DNA of 64,000 bases. Origin: Escherichia coli. Its GTDB lineage: Bacteria; Pseudomonadota; Gammaproteobacteria; Enterobacterales; Enterobacteriaceae. Of the stretch, positions 39,458 to 48,567 are shown in pieces; positions within the stretch are counted from its first letter, which is position 1; the number at the start of each line of letters is the position of its first letter. The notes beneath the pieces were generated by a model, which did not search any database, was not told where the DNA came from, and saw nothing but the letters and a program-made list of their open reading frames with translations. A program made the position numbers and the translations under genes. The stretch lies in assembly GCF_003018235.1 (NCBI RefSeq), contig NZ_CP027437.1. One strand, given 5' to 3'.

Positions 39458-39534
39458 GCGCCGTTAGCTCAGCTGGACAGAGCAATTGCCTTCTAAGCAA
39501 TCGGTCACTGGTTCGAATCCAGTATGGCGCACCA
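39458..39534 (+). tRNA. tRNA-Arg (anticodon UCU)
   Basis: Manual cloverleaf: acceptor GCGCCGT/ATGGCGC, D-arm GCTC..GAGC, anticodon loop CTTCTAA, T-arm ACTGG-TTCGAAT-CCAGT, CCA end. Confidence 0.85.
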
Positions 39535-39535
39535 T

Positions 39536-39610
39536 GCGGTCATCGTATAATGGCTATTACCTCGGCCTTCCAGGCTGATGATGCGGGTTCGATTCCAGCT
39601 GGCCGCTCCA
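39536..39610 (+). tRNA. tRNA-Gly (anticodon UCC)
   Basis: Manual cloverleaf: acceptor GCGGTCA/TGGCCGC, anticodon loop CTTCCAG, T-loop TTCGATT, CCA end; close to glyT tRNA as I recall it. Confidence 0.8.
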
Positions 39611-39768: not shown

Positions 39769-40321
39769 TATTTTTAGTATTTAGCCAGAGTGGCCCAAAC
39801 AGAAAATAAAGTTACTGTGAAACAGGGGGGCCTAATAAAAATAATCACCACTAAATTCGGGGCTTTAAAAATGCTAAGAACATCACATTTCATTATGCCG
39901 GGTACTGGAGAATAACATGATGTTTTGTTAAAAATGATTTTGCATGGTGAATCCCCCTGTGCGGCGGGGCATAATGACAGATGTTTGGTTGCGTATTGTA
40001 TAGGCAAGTTGCGGATTCTGTCTGGTCATTGCAGAATTCACCGGGAGGCACCCGGCACCATGCAGATAATTGTTTTGTGGATGATAATACCAGCCCCTCT
40101 CCGGAGGGGCTTTCTTATGGGCGAAAAAAAGCCCGGGGAGCCGGGCAATAGCATGAGATATACGTTTTTATAGACGTACAGATTTTAATCAGAATTTATG
40201 GGGCTGCGCAACTGCGTGGCCTTTTTTGTTTTGTGGGCTAAGGTTTTCCCCTTTGATTCGCCATGTGGCTGAACCTGTAGCCCGCCACTGTTCAGACGCA
40301 ATCCCGGCAAGGGGAGGAATA

Positions 40322-42349
40322 ATGGCATTTAAACACTACGATCTGGTCTCTGCCAGCAGCGGTGATGAACTGCAAAAGAAACTGACAGAAAAAATAAATG
40401 AAGGGTGGCAGCCATACGGTTCGCCGCTTGTTTCGTATGACGATAACGGGATGAAAATTATTCAGGCCATTGCAGCAGAGGGTGATGTCAGGATCCCGGT
40501 TGAAACGCCTGATGATGGTGGTGATTCACCGGTCACAATGACCTCCGGTGCACCTGATTATTATTATGTTGTTGTGCTTGCCGGACAGTCCAACGGCATG
40601 GCCTACGGTGAGGGGCTTCCGTTACCGGACTCTTATGACCGCCCGGACCCGCGCATTAAACAGCTGGCACGCCGCAGTACAGTGACGCCGGGTGGGGACG
40701 CCTGTGCATACAATGATGTGATTCCGGCTGACCATTGTCTGCATGATGTACAGGATATGAGCGGTGTTAATCATCCGAAAGCGGACCTGAATAAGGGGCA
40801 GTATGGCTGTGTCAGTCAGGGGCTGCATATTGCCAAAAAACTGCTGTCGTATATCCCGCAGAATGCAGGGATACTTCTGGTGCCCTGCTGCCGTGGTGGT
40901 TCTGCATTCACCACCGGGGCTGACGGCACATTCAGTGAGGTCACCGGCGCATCCGCTGACGCTGCACGCTGGGGTGCCGGTAAACCCCTGTATCAGGACA
41001 TGGTCAGCCGGACAAAAGCGGCGCTGGCCAAGAACCCGAAAAACAGGCTGCTGGCGGTGGTATGGATGCAGGGCGAGGCAGACCTTGCGTCAGGCAGTCA
41101 GCAGCATAACGGGTTATTCACGGCCATGGTTCAGCAGTTCCGGACTGACCTGTCCTCACTTGCTGCGCAGTGCGTGAGTGGCAATGCTGCCACGGTGCCG
41201 TGGATTTGTGGTGATACCACGTATTACTGGAAGGCCACTTATGGCACACAGTATGAAGCCATTTATGGAGCCTATAAGAATCTGTCCGCACAGAATATTT
41301 TCTTTGTACCGTTCCTGACAGATGAAAACGGCGCAAACACGCCAACGAACCAGCCAGCGGAAGACCCGGATATTGTGGCTGTGGGGTATTACGGTGCGGC
41401 ATCACGAACACAGGCGAACTGGACGACAGCGCAACGTGACAGCCATTTCAGCACCTGGGCGCGTCGCGGCATCATTTCTGACCGCCTTGCGTCAGCTATT
41501 CTGGTGCACGCGGGACGTACGTCAGGTTTCATTACCGGTGAAGTTTCTTCTCCGGACACTGCATCCGGTGACGGTGGTTCGTCCACTGATGCGGGTACGG
41601 ATGCGGGGACCGGCACTTCCGGAACAGGAAGTGATGACGCTACCGGAACGACACCAGCCACCGCTGCCATTATTCTGAGTGCAGACGGAGGGGATGTTTC
41701 GGCACAGGGCTGGACGGTGGAAGGCACCACGGTGACCACCACGGCAAACACGGTGACTTCATCGGGTGAGGCGCTGGCGCAGAATGTGCTGAGTGTTCCG
41801 AAACAGAGCGGGGCAGCATGGAAGCTTGTTCATACCACCACAGATGAGCCAGCGGAACTGCTGAACAATGGCGGTGAGTTCCTGTGTCGTTTCCGTATCA
41901 CGGATACTGCCATTGCTGAGGGGCGTTATGCCTTTGGTCTTTACTGGCTTCCGGACGCACAGAAGATACCAGCCGGTGCGACATTCAATAAAACAGGAAG
42001 CGGGATGTCCCCGTCCATGCTCAACTTCTATGTCCAGACGGATGGCAGCAACATAAACCTGTTATCACACTGCAGTACGAAGAGTGCAGGGAATCTGAAG
42101 ATTGGCTCATTCGGTGCATTTAACAATGAATGGCATACCTTCCGTCTTCGCTACCATGGTGGCAATACGGCAAGAGCAACGGTGACGCTGGACAGTCAGG
42201 TGGTGGGAGATATAACGCTGTTATGTGCGCCGTCAGCGGCCAGTGCCGGTGACACTCTGTCGATGATAAGTATCACATCGGGTGATACATACAGTATTGA
42301 AGTGGAAAGCCTGAGTGTGACGGTGAACGGGGCTGCGGCAGCGGCGTGA
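40322..42349 (+). CDS. Prophage-type sialate O-acetylesterase-like protein (nanS-p-like)
   Basis: GGGGAGG SD; N-terminal MAFKHYDLV... domain then VVLAGQSNGMAYGEG esterase-like segment; located between tRNAs and holin as in Stx-type lambdoid prophages (recollection). Confidence 0.55.
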   Translation: MAFKHYDLVSASSGDELQKKLTEKINEGWQPYGSPLVSYDDNGMKIIQAIAAEGDVRIPVETPDDGGDSPVTMTSGAPDYYYVVVLAGQSNGMAYGEGLPLPDSYDRPDPRIKQLARRSTVTPGGDACAYNDVIPADHCLHDVQDMSGVNHPKADLNKGQYGCVSQGLHIAKKLLSYIPQNAGILLVPCCRGGSAFTTGADGTFSEVTGASADAARWGAGKPLYQDMVSRTKAALAKNPKNRLLAVVWMQGEADLASGSQQHNGLFTAMVQQFRTDLSSLAAQCVSGNAATVPWICGDTTYYWKATYGTQYEAIYGAYKNLSAQNIFFVPFLTDENGANTPTNQPAEDPDIVAVGYYGAASRTQANWTTAQRDSHFSTWARRGIISDRLASAILVHAGRTSGFITGEVSSPDTASGDGGSSTDAGTDAGTGTSGTGSDDATGTTPATAAIILSADGGDVSAQGWTVEGTTVTTTANTVTSSGEALAQNVLSVPKQSGAAWKLVHTTTDEPAELLNNGGEFLCRFRITDTAIAEGRYAFGLYWLPDAQKIPAGATFNKTGSGMSPSMLNFYVQTDGSNINLLSHCSTKSAGNLKIGSFGAFNNEWHTFRLRYHGGNTARATVTLDSQVVGDITLLCAPSAASAGDTLSMISITSGDTYSIEVESLSVTVNGAAAAA

Positions 42350-43995: not shown

Positions 43996-44529
43996 ATGAA
44001 CGCAAAAATCAGATACGGCCTGTCGGCTGCCGTTCTGGCGCTGATTGCCGCAGGGGCTTCTGCGCCAGAAATCCTTGACCAGTTTCTGAATGAAAAAGAA
44101 GGTAATCACACCACGGCATACCGTGATGGTGCGGGTATCTGGACCATCTGCCGTGGTGCCATTCTGGTGGACGGTAAGCCTGTTGTTCCCGGCATGAAGT
44201 TGTCGAGGGAAAAATGCGACCAGGTTAACGCCATCGAACGTGACAGGGCGCTGGCATGGGTGGAGAAAAACATCAAAGTGCCGCTGACCGAACCGCAGAA
44301 AGCGGGGATTGCGTCATTCTGCCCGTACAACATCGGTCCTTCGAAATGCTTCACCTCAACGTTTTACCGGAGACTGAACGCCGGAGACCGTAAGGGGGCA
44401 TGTGCTGAAATCCGTCGGTGGATATATGACGGTGGCAGGGACTGCCGTATCCGCTCAAACAACTGCTACGGTCAGGTATCCCGGCGTGACCAGGAGAGTG
44501 CGCTGGCGTGCTGGGGTATCGACAGATAA
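43996..44529 (+). CDS. R: SAR endolysin (T4-lysozyme-like muramidase)
   Basis: Gly/Ala-rich N-terminal SAR segment GLSAAVLALIAAGASA; catalytic E-x8-D-x5-T (EGNHTTAYRDGAGIWT). Confidence 0.9.
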   Translation: MNAKIRYGLSAAVLALIAAGASAPEILDQFLNEKEGNHTTAYRDGAGIWTICRGAILVDGKPVVPGMKLSREKCDQVNAIERDRALAWVEKNIKVPLTEPQKAGIASFCPYNIGPSKCFTSTFYRRLNAGDRKGACAEIRRWIYDGGRDCRIRSNNCYGQVSRRDQESALACWGIDR

Positions 44530-44864
44530 GCAGAATATTTTGCTGAAAAATGAGATTTTCCCACGCGTCCGGAAAACACAAAATCCTTCATAAAGGTATT
44601 TCAGTAGTGAATAAAAGTAAAAACCCCGATTGCGCTAACAGTCGGGGTTTTGTGTTTCTGACCTTGAATAAGGCAAGGGAGAAATTATCAGGTAGGGAGG
44701 TGCTTTCCCTGTGAGGAAGTATAAAAGATTCTTTCTGAGGTTGTCCATTATGAAAGGCATTGAAGTGGAGACGCCAGCCAGTCTGGATTTAACAAGAGCA
44801 GCAGCCTTTGCCATTCGTATTGTGGCAATTGCCATACTGGTCTGGGCAATCCGCTGGTGGTGAT

Positions 44865-45332
44865 ATGAACCGTGTTCTGTATGTGTTGATTATTGTCCTG
44901 CTGGTGGCCTGCGGTGCGCTGTGGCTGGCAACAGACCATTACCGCGATAATGCCATCACTTACAAAGCGCAGCGCGATAAAAAAGTCAGAGAACTGAAGC
45001 TGGCTGACGCCACCATTACTGACATGCAGCAGCGCCAGCGTGATGTTGCTGCACTCGATGCAAAATACACAAAGGAGTTAGCCGATGCGAGAGCTGAAAA
45101 TGAAACTCTGCGCGCTGATGTTGCTGCTGGTCGTAAGCGCCTGCGTGTCAACGCCACCTGTGTGTCCGCCACAGACAAAGCCACCGGCACCGCCCGCGTG
45201 GGTAATGCTGCCCGCCCCAGACTGGCAGACGCCGCTCAACGGTATTATTTCACCCTCAGAGAGCGGCTGATGACGATGCAGAAGCAACTGGAAGGGGCAC
45301 AGGAATATATCAGGACGCAATGCGTGAAATAG
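44865..45332 (+). CDS. Rz: i-spanin Rz
   Basis: N-terminal TM then coiled coil; close to lambda Rz as I recall ([16 protein letters not shown]..). Confidence 0.85.
45085..45270 (+). CDS. Rz1: o-spanin Rz1 lipoprotein, embedded in Rz in another frame
   Basis: AAGGAG SD; lipobox LLLVVSAC; Pro-rich; ends ...[10 protein letters not shown] like lambda Rz1. Confidence 0.85.
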
Positions 45333-45764
45333 GTTTTCTCAGTGCGTTGTATCGTCGCCGTATTCCCGCATTAACAGAGACCGCAGCCCGACGGGGAGAC
45401 TCCTCTGCGCGAGTGTGCGGGAATAATCAGAAACGATGCACACCGGGTTTTGCCGCGTAAACAGGACGCGGACTGCACCCACATGGTCGCCTGTCCGGTG
45501 CGATGGTGGAAGAAACCGGAACACTCAGTACTCACCTGGAATAAAAAAAGCCGCAGGTGGTATGCGGCATAAAATGGCACGAATTAGTGGATGTTTCTTT
45601 TTTCGTTTGTATTTTTATCTGATTTCCTGAGGTGTAATCAATTCGAAAAATACGTGAGAACAGAGCGTGTATTTTCGACCTTTTTTTGCTGGAAGAAACC
45701 TGATGTAAACACAATTGATAATTATTATCATTTGTGGGGTCCTCCTGGCGGGGTTGGCCTGTCC

Positions 45765-45785
45765 ACGGGGCGGGTCGGCGCGGAA
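45765..45785. other. Putative cosN (cohesive-end site)
   Basis: ACGGGGCGGGTCGGCGCGG resembles lambda cosN ACGGGGCGGCGACCTCGCGG; about 200 bp upstream of the small terminase start, as in lambda. Confidence 0.35.
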
Positions 45786-45970
45786 AAAGGCGCATTTTTG
45801 TGATTTTATCGTCATCATCATCATGTGTTTAACGTATTGATTTTAAGTGAATTCATCCTGAAAAGATGATGATTGTGGTTAATTTTTGTTCGACATCTTT
45901 GTGTGGCGCTGTTTCTTTACAAAAAAAACAGAGTCACTTCTGTTTTGCGGTATTTGTGGAGGAGGAATAA

Positions 45971-46447
45971 ATGGACGGCGAGCTGAAAAATATGAAGTTC
46001 AATATTAATCAACTGGCATTCCTTTCAGGCCTGCACCGGCAGACTGTTGCCGCCAGAATGGCGGATGTTCCTCTTGCGCCAGGCAGTAATGAAAAGAAAA
46101 AACTTTATCTCCTGACGGATTTGATTAGTTCGTTACTGGAAAAACCACCCTCTTCCGAAGATGAGGAGATGGATCCACACGATCGCAAGGCATGGTATCA
46201 GTCCGAGCGCGAGCGCCTTAAATTTCAGCATGAAACTGTTCAGCTTGTGCCCGTCAGTGATGTCAGGCGGTCGTTTTCCGTCGTGGTGAAAGCCATTGTG
46301 CAGATACTGGAAACCTGGCCTGACAGGCTGGAAAGGGACAGGGGGTGGACTGCATCACAACTGAACGAAGTGCAGATCGTTGTTGATGAGATCCGTGACA
46401 CGCTGGAAAAGGCAGTGATTGCCTGCTGTGATGAGGCCGATATGTGA
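45971..46447 (+). CDS. Terminase small subunit (Nu1-like, N-terminal wHTH)
   Basis: GGAGGAGG SD; MKFNINQLAFLSGLHRQTVAARM resembles the lambda Nu1 N-terminus; precedes large terminase. Confidence 0.7.
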   Translation: MDGELKNMKFNINQLAFLSGLHRQTVAARMADVPLAPGSNEKKKLYLLTDLISSLLEKPPSSEDEEMDPHDRKAWYQSERERLKFQHETVQLVPVSDVRRSFSVVVKAIVQILETWPDRLERDRGWTASQLNEVQIVVDEIRDTLEKAVIACCDEADM

Positions 46448-48567
46448 ATCAGGTGAACGAGAGCCACAGCCGCGCATCAGATATCTGGCGCGAAGTGGCC
46501 TCACTGTTTCGCCCACCAGGCCGGTTACCTGTGGCGGAAGCCATCAGGCGTTACATGCGGGTACCACGGGGAGCCAATACTTCCGGTCCGTGGGAGTCAT
46601 CGCTGACGCCCTACATGATTGACCCCATTAATACATTATCAGCCCGTGAATATGACGCGGTGGTGTTTGTGGGACCGGCGCGAACCGGGAAAACCGAAGG
46701 GCTGATTGATGGCTGGATTGTGTATGGCATTATCTGCGATCCGGCGGATATGCTGGTGGTGCAGATGACCGAAACAAAGGCGCGGGAGCATTCCAGAACG
46801 CGTCTTTCCAGGACATTTCGTCACAGTCCGGAGGTCAGTAAACGCCTCAGCCCTTCCCGTAATGACAACAACGTCCACGATAAAATGTTTCTTGACGGCT
46901 CCTTTCTGAAAATTGGCTGGCCGTCGATCACCGTATTTTCCTCCTCAGATTACCGCCGGGTGGCGCTGACGGACTATGACCGTTTTCCTGAGAACGTCGA
47001 CGGTGAAGGGGATGCCTTCACGCTGGCATCAAAGCGTACCACCACCTTTATGTCCTCAGGGATGACCCTGGTCGAAAGTTCACCCGGGCGGGATATCACC
47101 GACACCAAATGGCGATGTGGTGGTGCACATGAGGCTCCGCCAACAACGGGGATCCTGTCGCTGTATAACCGGGGAGACCGCCGCCGGTGGTACTGGCCGT
47201 GTCCGCACTGCGGGGAATATTTTCAGCCGGTGATGGATAACATGACCGGTTACCGTAATAACCCAGATTTTGTGGCTGCGGGTCAGGCTGCCCGTCTGAT
47301 GTGTCCGCACTGTCGCGGGCTGATTGCTCCGGAACAGAAACGCGAACTGAATAACAGGGGGATCTGGCTGCGGGAAGGTGAACGGGCGGCGGCGGACGGC
47401 AGCATCACCGGAACGCCACGAAATTCCAGGATTGCGTCATTCTGGATGGAGGGTCCGGCTGCGGCGTTTCAGACCTGGGAACAACTGATTTTTAAGCTGC
47501 TGGCGGCAGAAGAAGAGTATGAGCGAACCGGCAGTGAAGAGACCCTGAAAGCGGTGGTGAATACCGATATCGGACGGCCTTATCTGCCCCGTTCAGCCAC
47601 GGAACAGCGTAAAAGTGAACTGCTTGAACAGCGTGCTGAGCCGGTTCCCCGGCGGTGTGTGCCGGATGGGGTGCGCTTCATTGAGGCAACGGTTGACGTA
47701 CAGGGCGGTAAAAACCGCCGGTTTGTGGTGCAGATCACCGGATATGGAGAGCAGGGGGAACGCTGGATTGTTGATCGCTACAACATCCGGCAATCACTGC
47801 GATGCAGTCCCGGTGGTGAGAGCCTGCCGGTTGATCCGGCGGCCTATCCGGAAGACTGGGAACTGTTGCTGACAGATGTGTTTCACAAAACCTGGCCGCT
47901 GGCGTCTGATCCGGATGTGCATATGCGGCTCATGGCGATGGCCGTGGATACGGGCGGTGAAGCCGGGGTGACGGATAACGCCTATCGTTTCTGGCGGCAG
48001 TGCCGCCGGGAAGGGCTGGGTAACCGGGTGTTTCTGTTCAAGGGGGATGGTCTTCGTCGCGACAGACTGATTAACCGGACATTCCCGGATAACACCGGCA
48101 GAAGCGCCCGCCGGGCCAGGGCGAGCGGTGACGTTGCCCTGTGGCTGGTACAGACCGATGCGTTTAAGGACCGGGTGAATAATGCGCTGTGGCGTGACAC
48201 ACCGGGGCCGAACTATATCCACTTTCCTGACTGGCTGGGACGGTGGTTTTTCGATGAGCTGACCTATGAGGAGCGCGGCAGTGACGGAAAATGGCGAAAA
48301 CCGGGCAGAGGCGCTAACGAAGCGTTTGACCTGCTGGTCTATGCGGATGCGCTTGCCGTTCTGCATGGCTACGAGAAGATACGCTGGCCGTCTGCACCGG
48401 ACTGGGCGCAGCGGGAAACATGGCTTGTCGGTCCGGAGGAGCGTTCAGGGCTGACAACATCACGGGCGCTGCCGGAAAGGAAAGAAAAACGCCGTCGCAG
48501 GCAGGAAAAACTGCGCGCAGAGCGGGCAGAGGATAATCCGTGGATAACATCAGGAGGCTGGTTGTGA
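46444..48567 (+). CDS. Terminase large subunit (lambda gpA family)
   Basis: 707 aa; Walker A-like GPARTGKT; CPHCGEYF zinc motif as in lambda A. Confidence 0.9.
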   Translation: MNQVNESHSRASDIWREVASLFRPPGRLPVAEAIRRYMRVPRGANTSGPWESSLTPYMIDPINTLSAREYDAVVFVGPARTGKTEGLIDGWIVYGIICDPADMLVVQMTETKAREHSRTRLSRTFRHSPEVSKRLSPSRNDNNVHDKMFLDGSFLKIGWPSITVFSSSDYRRVALTDYDRFPENVDGEGDAFTLASKRTTTFMSSGMTLVESSPGRDITDTKWRCGGAHEAPPTTGILSLYNRGDRRRWYWPCPHCGEYFQPVMDNMTGYRNNPDFVAAGQAARLMCPHCRGLIAPEQKRELNNRGIWLREGERAAADGSITGTPRNSRIASFWMEGPAAAFQTWEQLIFKLLAAEEEYERTGSEETLKAVVNTDIGRPYLPRSATEQRKSELLEQRAEPVPRRCVPDGVRFIEATVDVQGGKNRRFVVQITGYGEQGERWIVDRYNIRQSLRCSPGGESLPVDPAAYPEDWELLLTDVFHKTWPLASDPDVHMRLMAMAVDTGGEAGVTDNAYRFWRQCRREGLGNRVFLFKGDGLRRDRLINRTFPDNTGRSARRARASGDVALWLVQTDAFKDRVNNALWRDTPGPNYIHFPDWLGRWFFDELTYEERGSDGKWRKPGRGANEAFDLLVYADALAVLHGYEKIRWPSAPDWAQRETWLVGPEERSGLTTSRALPERKEKRRRRQEKLRAERAEDNPWITSGGWL

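Follow-up and report, generated by a model that had tools for sequence, protein, structure and literature searches.

A predicted lambda-type cos site upstream of a DUF1441-type terminase in an Escherichia coli prophage

Genes around the site

The site described here lies in a 390-bp non-coding gap of the window (the whole 64,000-nucleotide stretch of E. coli DNA that was analysed), with the Rz lysis gene on one side and the terminase genes on the other. Genes for lysozyme and Rz are followed by the predicted cos and then by genes for TerS, TerL, a W-like adaptor and a lambda-family portal, and the site thus has the position of a cos, directly upstream of terS and a gpA-family terL. The presumed left end at 45768 stands 203 nt upstream of the small-terminase ATG (45971), which places the ATG at bp 204; the earlier note on this DNA had called this distance equivalent to that in lambda, and it is indeed similar although not equal, the lambda Nu1 ATG being at bp 191. 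The features of the locus are listed in Table 1. A scan of 44800-46200 against Rfam returned a single match, CyaR-like, which at 21 bits fell below the gathering score of 47.

Table 1. Predicted cos sub-sites, an adjacent palindrome and terminase genes, in window coordinates (^ marks a presumed nick; bp are counted from the left nick)
Feature	Position	Strand	Remarks
Fur-box-like palindrome TGATAATTATTATCA (7-1-7)	45716-45730		Exact match; inverted repeat I2; 6 nt upstream of cosQ
cosQ GGGTCCT, packaging-termination signal	45737-45743	+	Identical 7-mer at lambda 48473-48479
cosN CG^GGGCGGGTCGG^CG	45766-45780	+	Top-strand nick predicted between 45767 and 45768
Left nick site CG^GGGCGG	45766-45773	+	Identical to lambda
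I2-like A/T-tract spacer GAAAAAGGCGCATTTTTGTGATTTTAT, cosN to R3	45783-45809	+	A5 and T5/T4 tracts; bp 16-42
R3 candidate CGTCATCATCATCAT, main predicted small-terminase binding site of cosB	45810-45824	+	bp 43-57
I1-like IHF site AATCAATACGTTA, matching WATCAANNNNTTR	45830-45842	-	Exact consensus; the gap from R3 to R2 that holds it is 38 bp long
R2 candidate, opposite in orientation to R3 (+ strand reads AAGATGATGATTG)	45863-45875	-	Inverted repeats I3 and I5
R1 candidate TTCGACATCTTTGTG, in R3 orientation	45889-45903	+	Tentative; weakest R element
TerS, 158 aa, Pfam DUF1441 / PHROG 141	45971-46447	+	DUF1441 E=6.1e-48
TerL, 707 aa, lambda gpA family	46444-48567	+	GpA_ATPase E=3.7e-81; GpA_nuclease E=3.1e-84

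The large terminase aligns with lambda gpA at 24% identity over 674 columns (E=1e-17), and the gpA-type family is the one tied to 5'-extended cos ends (PMC12315714, citing Casjens). The small subunit had been described in the earlier note as Nu1-like, a term that holds only loosely. BLASTP found no similarity between TerS and lambda Nu1 (E=2.0), and the sequence belongs not to the Nu1 family (Phage_Nu1; PHROG 57) but, by Pfam, to DUF1441 only, with PHROG 141 as its best PHROG. The profiles of the two families nevertheless cross-match reciprocally, TerS matching phrog_141 ('terminase small subunit') at E=2.4e-63 and phrog_57 at 3.5e-9, and Nu1 matching phrog_57 at 1.3e-76 and phrog_141 at 5.6e-8, which suggests that TerS is a remote homologue of Nu1. 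In the structural model of TerS (mean pLDDT 73.9) an N-terminal strand-helix-helix-wing-helix is followed by long helices. The best Foldseek matches were MerR-family/RacA winged helix-turn-helix proteins and an Rpp/TerS-study chain, all at E>=0.1 and none significant, and a profile search of PDB sequences gave weak helix-turn-helix matches only (E>=0.07). The predicted MerR-like winged helix-turn-helix thus agrees weakly with a relation between TerS and Nu1.

Sub-sites of the predicted cos

The cosN-like string of 19 nt that had first drawn attention to the locus, ACGGGGCGGGTCGGCGCGG, occupies 45765-45783 on the + strand, exactly where it had been reported. The corresponding lambda string, ACGGGGCGGCGACCTCGCGG, is 20 nt long and has ACGGGGCGG and the terminal GCGG in common with this 19-mer; the likeness to lambda cosN claimed earlier is sound, although it includes a 1-nt deletion that went unmentioned. 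Because the two strings differ in length by 1 nt, an ungapped search of the window with the lambda 20-mer gave no match at up to 3 mismatches. In natural lambda-like phages the left half of cosN is conserved and the right half variable, and the left half-site follows a rule in which a CG flank precedes GGGCGG, with positions 1-6 of the cohesive end under selection (PMC4669245). The window conforms to this rule, CACG^GGGCGG at 45764-45773 being the same in lambda and invariant in relatives, as is CACGGGGCGG of cosN. The predicted cohesive end is, as the earlier note had proposed, unlike that of lambda, since GGGCGG (positions 1-6) is equal and every difference falls from position 7 on; the difference fits the pattern of natural variation described by Feiss and colleagues. 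The left end is likely to start at 45768, a position that the deposited record of phage cdtI matches, since as linearised it starts with GGGCGG and ends with CCACG, which corresponds to a cut at CG^GGGCGG. The records of mEp460, mEp213 and Ayreon, by contrast, are uninformative on the ends, as they are linearised just 5' of terS and not at cos. A search of the literature for the overhang sequences, those of relatives included, gave only unrelated papers, for example on G-quadruplexes and miRNA.

Upstream of cosN the window carries GGGTCCT, the 7-mer that we take to be the cosQ of Wieczorek & Feiss 2001. It is unchanged in all 18 aligned relatives and lies 24 nt from the left nick site, against 23 nt in lambda, in line with the ~23 bp by which a 7-bp cosQ is expected to precede the left nick of a lambda-like cos. 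High conservation of the 7-bp cosQ has been described (PMC4669245); a literature search for cosQ together with GGGTCCT yielded irrelevant papers only. The position of this motif bears on the A/T-rich segment at 45700-45730 (77% A+T), which had been put forward as a possible cosQ or IHF site. Neither assignment survives: cosQ lies instead at 45737-45743, and an IHF site was rejected here as the segment contains no match to the consensus, the nearest being at 45830-45842. The A/T-rich stretch is instead a Fur-box-like palindrome (45716-45730), for which 0.11 matches are expected at up to 2 mismatches. It is present in lambda too, where its counterpart, TGATAATCATTATCA, keeps the same 6-nt spacing from cosQ, and of the 43 unique flanks compared upstream of cos, 24 carry the palindrome at up to 2 mismatches.

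To the right of cosN the elements of a complex cosB can be recognized, namely an AT-rich I2, R3, an IHF site, an inverted R2 and, tentatively, R1. In lambda, I2 occupies bp 18-50 and is AT-rich, containing runs of poly-dA and of poly-dT (PMC4856287), and R3 lies at bp 50-65 (PMC9026076), slightly to the right of the position of R3 in the window. The portion GTCATCATCATCAT of the R3 candidate does not vary among 18 unique cos sequences, even though some come from relatives with a TerL only ~70% identical. Strict co-variation was seen between the R3 sequence and the helix-turn-helix/wing type found at the N-terminus of the neighbouring TerS. Over both strands of the 64 kb the IHF consensus, WATCAANNNNTTR, is matched exactly at only five places, one of them 45830-45842. 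Placement of an IHF site between R3 and R2 is the arrangement of the complex cosB of lambda (PMC4669245). R2 pairs with R3 through inverted repeats of 9 nt at 100% (I3) and 13 nt at 85% (I5), and AAGATGATGAT of R2 is kept in close relatives. The R1 candidate has TCGNCATC...TGTG in common with R3; its GTTCGACATCTTT is kept in close relatives, and GTTCACCATCATGG stands at the same place in mEp213-like relatives. In phage N15 cosQ and cosN are lambda-like, with variation in the right half (PMC4669245), but cosB is of the 'simple' type: it has one R3 and lacks an IHF site, and its rR2 lies far off within the TerS gene. The cosB of the window follows the complex arrangement of lambda and Monarch.

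Compared with lambda, the locus has the same order of sub-sites at similar spacing, an identical cosQ and an identical ACG^GGGCGG, an A/T-tract spacer, an R2 that runs opposite to R3 and R1, an IHF site in the interval from R3 to R2, and a cos ~200 bp upstream of terS that is followed by a gpA-family terL. It differs from lambda in its R sequences, which are unrelated (CATCAT repeats against the CGTTTCC type of lambda), in its R3 position, in a DUF1441-type TerS that BLAST does not relate to Nu1, and in the low identity of its TerL to gpA. It can be argued that a short GC-rich motif in an intergenic region is a product of chance, or that packaging in this phage is of the headful (pac) type and uses no cos. 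Consistent with this view, the window holds three copies of the 8-mer core CGGGGCGG, where 2.64 would be expected by chance, and the core is not significant on its own. The composite GGGTCCT-N(18-30)-ACGGGGCGG, however, is found once in the window and in none of 100 shuffles, the multi-part layout is conserved, in position as in spacing, among phages with diverged flanking sequence, and TerL is of the gpA and not of the headful type. The hallmarks of headful packaging were not found at the locus, which combines a gpA-type TerL with a complete cos architecture. A site that is no cos at all is thus very improbable. The proposal of a cos with a lambda-like cosN receives strong support from the anatomy and the comparison, and we are highly confident that the segment is the packaging site of this lambdoid prophage in the E. 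coli chromosome.

Relatives and the length of the overhang

The framework of the site, GGGTCCT, 22-26 nt, CG^GGGC..., CGCGG, A/T tracts and R3, recurs across phages that include lambda, cdtI, mEp460, mEp213, Fels-1, VT1-Sakai, Kp4865-4, Cr-LKS3 and dozens of IMG/VR prophages. The family proper of the window site is that of lambdoid phages with a DUF1441-type TerS and Gifsy-2-like head genes (cdtI, mEp460, mEp213/LLS, Fels-1, VT1-Sakai and long-tailed Stx2a prophages), in which a CGCGG(A/G)AA..GGC block follows cosN. Relatives of the mEp460/mEp213 type (IMG/VR loci) possess the same TerS/TerL lineage, with TerL ~70% identical, and VT1-Sakai-type prophages are ~88% identical to the window in nucleotide sequence over the region. 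The R3 core of the window is common to mEp213-like and VT1-Sakai-like phages, whereas the inner cosN differs, VT1-Sakai having GCGGG and the window GTCGG.

Many E. coli lambdoid prophages are defective, and the site may be a cos by descent that has become a relic of a cryptic prophage, no longer cut or used. Rearrangement of related loci, one of which (L082) has a truncated TerL and tandem cos sites, would agree with such decay. In the window, however, every cos sub-site fits its consensus, and the TerS, TerL, adaptor, portal and protease-capsid open reading frames are full length. Furthermore, the exact 19-mer accompanies a TerL that is at least 96% identical in 13 IMG/VR contigs, and the cos region is present at >=80% nucleotide identity in ~570 complete E. 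coli genomes. A relic is therefore improbable, and a lambda-style cos served by the terminase of a sister lineage is very likely the best explanation overall.

The length of the cohesive end is less certain than its start. The earlier note spoke of a 12-nt end, which stays among the possible lengths, but the CG flanks in the window enclose just 11 nt (13 nt to the second CG), so that the overhang might be 11, 12 or 13 nt long. We consider the chances about even that it is 11 nt, 5'-GGGCGGGTCGG, with the bottom-strand nick opposite 45778/45779, in which case both nicks would lie against conserved CG flanks. Three further observations support this length: CGCGGAAAAAGGC is homologous to the block that comes right after the 12-nt overhang in mEp460 and cdtI; the yong2 record, as linearised in its deposit, begins at the first C of CGCGG; and the distance from cosQ to CGCGG stays at 34-35 nt throughout the ten sites compared, with 9, 10, 11 or 12 nt inside.

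The stagger of lambda terminase is 12 nt, and fixed enzyme geometry would predict the same here. On this account the site is a functional cos whose stagger is set by the nuclease dimer, giving an overhang of lambda length, 5'-GGGCGGGTCGGC, with the bottom-strand nick opposite 45779/45780 and a right flank of GC. Lambda and other characterised lambda-like phages do have 12-nt ends (PMC4669245, PMC9026076), the TerL of the window is in the same gpA family as that of lambda, and an altered right flank might be tolerated, since base changes in the right half barely affect cleavage of lambda cos (PMC4669245). A 12-nt stagger would, however, place the right nick within GC^GC and not before the conserved CG, although the CG dinucleotides that flank the nicks are highly conserved (PMC4669245), and the two-fold symmetry of the window in that register is just 2/16. 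A length of 12 nt is, moreover, not universal in the gpA family, as the Cylindrospermopsis phage Cr-LKS3, with a gpA-type terminase and a related TerS, has a measured 9-nt 5' overhang, GGGCTCGCG (PMC9303873). The two sites are alike in several respects, for Cr-LKS3 has a gpA-type TerL, a TerS (a DUF1441 relative) 32% identical to that of the window, a cosQ-like GGGTCCC, CG^GGGC on the left, ^CGCGG on the right and, as in the window, 35 nt from cosQ to CGCGG; it differs in coming from a distant host and phage, in the 9-nt length of its overhang and in a cosB that is not comparable. By analogy, Cr-LKS3 indicates that the terminase family of the window can make overhangs shorter than 12 nt.

The relatives bear on the same point. 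Between the cosN flanks there are 12 nt in mEp460, mEp213, cdtI and Fels-1, 11 in the window and VT1-Sakai, and 10 in many O157-type prophages; for LLS and mEp213 a 12-nt end, GGGCGGCGCGCT, has been inferred in print (PMC12315714). Arranged by terminase, prophages with TerL at least 96% identical to that of the window carry 10 nt in some cases and 11 in others, including the window, and those with TerL ~70% identical carry 12. With 10 or 11 nt inside, the right nicks of these close relatives would fall in differing contexts if the stagger were fixed at 12 nt. We thus regard a 12-nt overhang as possible, although unlikely.

The remaining share of probability, a small one, falls to an overhang of 13 nt (bottom-strand nick opposite 45780/45781) or of some other length. 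Were the functional cos nicked before the second CG of CGCGG, the overhang would be 5'-GGGCGGGTCGGCG and the CG right flank would be kept, with the highest two-fold symmetry of the three registers (10/17, against 6/15 for 11 nt); the same shift of +2 would give relatives with 10 nt between the flanks a 12-nt overhang, a CG flank and a symmetry of 10/16, which is also the score of lambda cosN. The same logic, however, fails for lambda, since it predicts 14 nt (10/18) wherever the flanks enclose 12 nt; the CGCG repeat thus inflates the score. Symmetry is in any case a weak guide, as it does not pick the measured register of Cr-LKS3, and it was rejected as a decisive means of choosing between registers. 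The start of the yong2 record at the first C of CGCGG likewise speaks against 13 nt, which we consider an improbable length. The 11-nt overhang remains the reading that we favour.

Proposed packaging and possible variation of the stagger

That the site is cut, and where, we infer from sequence anatomy, gene families, conservation and co-variation. In the proposed mechanism the DUF1441-type TerS would bind cosB at R3 and R2, the two repeats being brought together by a bend that IHF induces at 45830-45842, and TerS so bound would position the gpA-type TerL on cosN, ~45 bp leftward. TerL would then nick the top strand at 45767/45768 (CG^GGGCGG) and, a few bases farther right, the bottom strand, leaving a 5'-protruding cohesive end that begins 5'-GGGCGGGTCGG. 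Packaging would proceed rightward into the head genes and stop at the next cos, where cosQ (45737-45743) would be needed for the bottom-strand nick.

It should be stressed that the site is, on the sequence comparison, an ordinary lambda-type cos, of a kind already well studied, with a sticky end that differs and is possibly one base shorter. The only point beyond routine is the series of 10-, 11- and 12-nt spacings between the flanks, and the 2017 study of the natural history of cosN by Vahanian et al. may already describe the 10- and 11-nt variants. It is conceivable, if rather doubtful, that near-identical terminases yield cohesive ends of different lengths, the stagger then not being fixed by the nuclease dimer. 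The left nick would in this case be placed by CG^GGGCGG and the right nick by its distance from R3/CGCGG, and the constant interval from cosQ to CGCGG would be the conserved measure. If the series is real at the DNA ends, these prophages would offer natural substrates for the question of what determines, in a lambda-type terminase, the stagger between the two nicks.

The predicted site would fix the genome ends and the direction of packaging for a widespread group of E. coli prophages (the relatives of VT1-Sakai and long-tailed Stx2a phages), which may be of use in annotation, in the calling of prophage boundaries and in the reading of virome reads. As cosQ and cosN are shared while the specificity of cosB and TerS differs, the site may also help to predict which phages and satellites can exchange or hijack packaging.

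Putative sub-sites of the cos region

A lambdoid E. coli prophage very probably has its cos site in the stretch 45737-45903, a reading based on sequence comparison in which putative sub-sites can be annotated one by one. An earlier note on this DNA had proposed a cos site with a lambda-like cosN, which is borne out by the sub-site anatomy and by the relatives; its 19-mer, ACGGGGCGGGTCGGCGCGG, lies exactly at 45765-45783 on the + strand, in a non-coding gap of 390 bp. It is the cosQ-cosN composite, not the GC-rich core, that exceeds chance: the core CGGGGCGG is unremarkable alone (3 copies in the window against 2.64 expected), while GGGTCCT-(18-30 nt)-ACGGGGCGG occurs once in the window and in 0 of 100 shuffles. 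The likeness to lambda holds for the shared flanks and GGGCGG, but the note overlooked a one-base deletion; because the window is one base shorter than lambda between GGGCGG and CGCGG, the lambda 20-mer has no ungapped match in the window at ≤3 mismatches. A 14-nt direct repeat (79% identity, start-to-start 22 nt) places GTCCTCCTGGCGGG after cosQ (45739-45752) and GTCCACGGGGCGGG over the left nick site (45761-45774), and could be a coincidence of GC-rich sequence or mark an additional point of contact for terminase.

Features of the putative cos region and its surroundings (window coordinates; bp 1 = 45768)
Feature	Position	Remarks
tmRNA (ssrA) gene	4756-5118, minus strand	tag peptide ANDENYALAA; beside recN-nadK-grpE-bamE
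tRNA-Arg(UCU) and tRNA-Gly(UCC) genes	39458-39610	
707-aa ORF, phrog_143	40226-42349	~600 bp past the two tRNA genes
Phage lysozyme	43996-44529	upstream of cos
Rz gene	44808-45332	upstream of cos
CyaR-like Rfam match	45543-45622	sub-threshold: 21 bits vs gathering score 47, E=0.67
Terminator-like hairpin and T run	45550-45568, minus strand	non-coding gap left of cos
Palindrome TGATAATTATTATCA	45716-45730	
Putative cosQ, GGGTCCT	45737-45743	6 bases past palindrome
cosN, CG/GGGCGGGTCGG/CGCGG	first G of GGGCGG = 45768	24 nt past GGGTCCT
A5/T5-tract spacer	bp 16-42	
R3 candidate CGTCATCATCATCAT	bp 43-57	
Exact IHF consensus	bp 63-75 (45830-45842), minus strand	1 of 5 in the whole 64 kb
Inverted copy AAGATGATGATTG	bp 96-108	pairs with CGTCATCATCATCAT: inverted repeat, 9 nt perfect, 13 nt 85%
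Weaker direct copy TTCGACATCTTTGTG	bp 122-136	
TerS ATG	bp 204	preceded by a Shine-Dalgarno sequence
Small terminase (TerS) ORF, 158 aa	45971-46447	downstream; Pfam DUF1441, E=6.1e-48
Large terminase (TerL), 707 aa		downstream; GpA_ATPase 3.7e-81, GpA_nuclease 3.1e-84
Head-tail adaptor, lambda-family portal, protease-capsid fusion		downstream of large terminase

The order of these parts is that of lambda, whose junction was assembled from both ends of NC_001416. The 7-bp GGGTCCT, which we take to be the cosQ of Wieczorek & Feiss 2001, occupies lambda positions 48473-48479 and precedes the nick there by 23 nt, compared with 24 nt in the window, and lambda Nu1 starts at bp 191, slightly nearer the nick than TerS. 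Lambda cosQ is a highly conserved 7-bp element within bp 48446-48502 (PMC4669245, PMC4856287), followed across the nick by the AT-rich I2 at bp 18-50 (PMC4856287), R3 at bp 50-65 (PMC9026076), the IHF site I1 between R3 and R2, and an R2 whose orientation is opposite to that of R3 and R1 (PMC4669245).

Upstream palindrome and gene neighbourhood

The A/T-rich segment 45700-45730 (77% A+T) had been suggested as cosQ or an IHF site, a candidate that we reject: it contains no IHF consensus, the exact consensus lies downstream, and cosQ is assigned to GGGTCCT. Its core, TGATAATTATTATCA (TGATAATnATTATCA), forms an inverted repeat of perfect 7-1-7 structure, and the E. coli Fur box GATAATGATAATCATTATC is built of such repeats (PMC11353095); 0.11 Fur-box-like matches at ≤2 mismatches would be expected in the window. 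Lambda carries TGATAATCATTATCA at 48452-48466, also 6 nt from cosQ, and of 43 unique flanks upstream of cos, 24 contain the palindrome at ≤2 mismatches, all but one of these with 5-7 nt between it and cosQ. Cos regions of the mEp460 type, and some others, lack the palindrome, which is thus conserved without being required for cos. It may reflect common descent or have a regulatory function, and we know of no described function for a palindrome next to cosQ. The stretch of the gap that holds the hairpin, which the CyaR-like match overlaps, is kept in the closest E. coli relatives only, and may correspond to a short transcript from the minus strand that begins close to the palindrome.

The host DNA in the window is that of E. 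coli, the recN-nadK-grpE-bamE region being matched at 99.2% identity. The phrog_143 ORF falls within a stretch that aligns to prophages of the Stx2a-converting kind, whose annotated features there include a yjhS gene for 9-O-acetyl-N-acetylneuraminic acid deacetylase. The layout of tRNA genes and ORF appears to resemble a Stx phage late region; the gap after the tRNA genes looks too short for stxAB.

Relatives, the small terminase and cosB

The region is shared at 96% identity with an E. coli O158:H23 prophage, and in prophages of ~570 complete E. coli genomes the region is 80-90% identical, with the downstream gene annotated 'DUF1441 family protein'. The nearest phage records, with ~88% identity across the late region, belong to VT1-Sakai and to long-tailed Stx2a-converting prophages; mEp460, mEp213/mEp043/LLS, Fels-1, cdtI, Klebsiella Kp4865-4, Hafnia yong2 and cyanophage Cr-LKS3 are more distant, and a pattern scan of IMG/VR added >70 cos regions of the same framework. 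Aligning 18 unique sequences revealed the invariant blocks GGGTCCTCC, CACGGGGCGG and GTCATCATCATCAT amid varying sequence. In Fels-1 cosN is normal (CCACG/GGGCGGCAGCGG/CGCGG) and AGGTACT replaces GGGTCCT at the cosQ position, which could impair packaging termination. Two related loci, L082 (4190-4209 and 6727-6745) and L105 (8016 and 10552), each carry two complete cosQ-cosN sites on the same strand, ~2.5 kb apart and of different cosB types. The paired sites flank one ~630-aa ORF, by appearance a protease-capsid fusion, with an SSB-like ORF ahead of the first site and a 93-95-aa ORF past the second, where L082 also has a 5'-truncated TerL; these loci may be rearranged prophages or satellite-like elements.

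The description of the small terminase as Nu1-like stands only in part. Window TerS is assigned to PHROG 141 ('terminase small subunit', 2.4e-63) with a second match to PHROG 57 (3.5e-9), while lambda Nu1 belongs to PHROG 57 (1.3e-76) and also matches PHROG 141 (5.6e-8); against this reciprocal relationship, BLASTP detected no similarity between the two proteins (E=2.0) and their Pfam families differ. An AlphaFold model of TerS (14 sequences; mean pLDDT 73.9, pTM 0.33) has strand-helix-helix-wing-helix at the N-terminus, then long helices. Foldseek found nothing significant for this model, the best matches, all at E >= 0.1, being MerR-family winged HTH proteins, RacA-DNA (probability 0.99, 1.8 A over 47 columns) and one chain of the PICI Rpp/TerS study. 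We conclude that window TerS is probably a remote Nu1 homologue, a positional and functional analogue outside the Nu1 family.

Across IMG/VR prophage loci and phage records, the putative R3 changes together with the N-terminal region of the TerS encoded next to it: ...GSN.K.KLY types accompany GTCATCATCATCAT, ...GGHESNLKLY types CACCATCACCAC or GTCATCACCAC, the ...GGHDKLKLY type (L057/L059) GGCCACCATCATC and the cdtI type GGCGGCGGCA. A cosB and TerS that form a specificity pair are expected to co-vary in this way. Four loci (L051, L071, L072, L076) encode chimeric TerS proteins that differ from those of L001, L002 and the window in the N-terminal, predicted DNA-binding domain only, residues ~66 to 158 being near-identical to window TerS, and have R3 GGCACCATCACCACC in place of CGTCATCATCATCAT. 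These chimeras appear to represent a natural swap of packaging specificity.

Nick positions and the cosN spacing series

The predicted left nick (CG/GGGCGG, 45767/45768) is well anchored. The window is identical to lambda here, selection within cosN falls on positions 1-6 and on the CG beside them (PMC4669245), and the cdtI record begins with GGGCGG and ends with CCACG. The distance from the left CG to CGCGG is variable, being 12 nt in lambda, mEp213, mEp460, cdtI and Fels-1, 11 nt in the window and VT1-Sakai, and 10 nt in many O157-type prophages (GGGCGGGCGG). The record of mEp460_4F5 (LR595868.1; L011/L012) starts CCACGGGGCGGGAGCGCGG and has 9 nt between the flanks versus 12 in mEp460 (GGGCGGGAGCGG), either because the cohesive ends were misassembled or through a real 3-nt deletion in cosN.

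The position of the right nick is uncertain. There is roughly an even chance that it falls just before CGCGG, giving an 11-nt overhang, 5'-GGGCGGGTCGG. The conserved CG-flank rule for cosN nicks favours this register (PMC4669245), as does Cr-LKS3, whose measured 9-nt overhang, GGGCTCGCG (PMC9303873), lies exactly between CG and CGCGG; the yong2 record begins with CGCGG. A 12-nt overhang would match the stagger of the lambda enzyme but scores poorly for symmetry (2/16), and is a less probable, tentative alternative. Symmetry prefers a 13-nt register (10/17, against 6/15 for 11 nt and the value just given for 12 nt); the score, however, puts the measured Cr-LKS3 site in the wrong register and is therefore given little weight. 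An overhang of 13 nt or some other length is unlikely. A nick just before CGCGG is further favoured by the spacing of cosQ and CGCGG, which are 34 or 35 nt apart in 10/10 sites compared, with 9, 10, 11 or 12 nt inside cosN, the spacer between cosQ and the left nick compensating (26, 24, 24 and 22-23 nt, respectively). A constant distance from cosQ to the bottom nick is plausible because nicking of the bottom strand when packaging terminates depends on cosQ (PMC4856287). Whichever overhang length applies, the cohesive end differs from that of lambda, as the note had anticipated, and does so from position 7 on.

TerL proteins beside 10-nt sites (for example at L042, L051 and L067) and 11-nt sites (L002, L063, L108, L115) are 96-99% identical to window TerL, and those beside 12-nt sites (L003, L007, L045) ~70%. 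The exact window 19-mer recurs in 13 IMG/VR contigs, which together with the 96-99% identity indicates a length polymorphism within one enzyme lineage; the 10/11-nt difference is not a sequencing accident of a single record. Besides correcting the earlier note on cosQ, the IHF site, the small-terminase family and the hidden one-base deletion, the analysis holds nothing that would surprise a specialist, save possibly the 10/11/12-nt spacing series, the 10/11-nt part of which may have been dealt with already by Vahanian et al. 2017. If the cosN length variants give different overhang lengths, this would be the sole point of above-routine interest.
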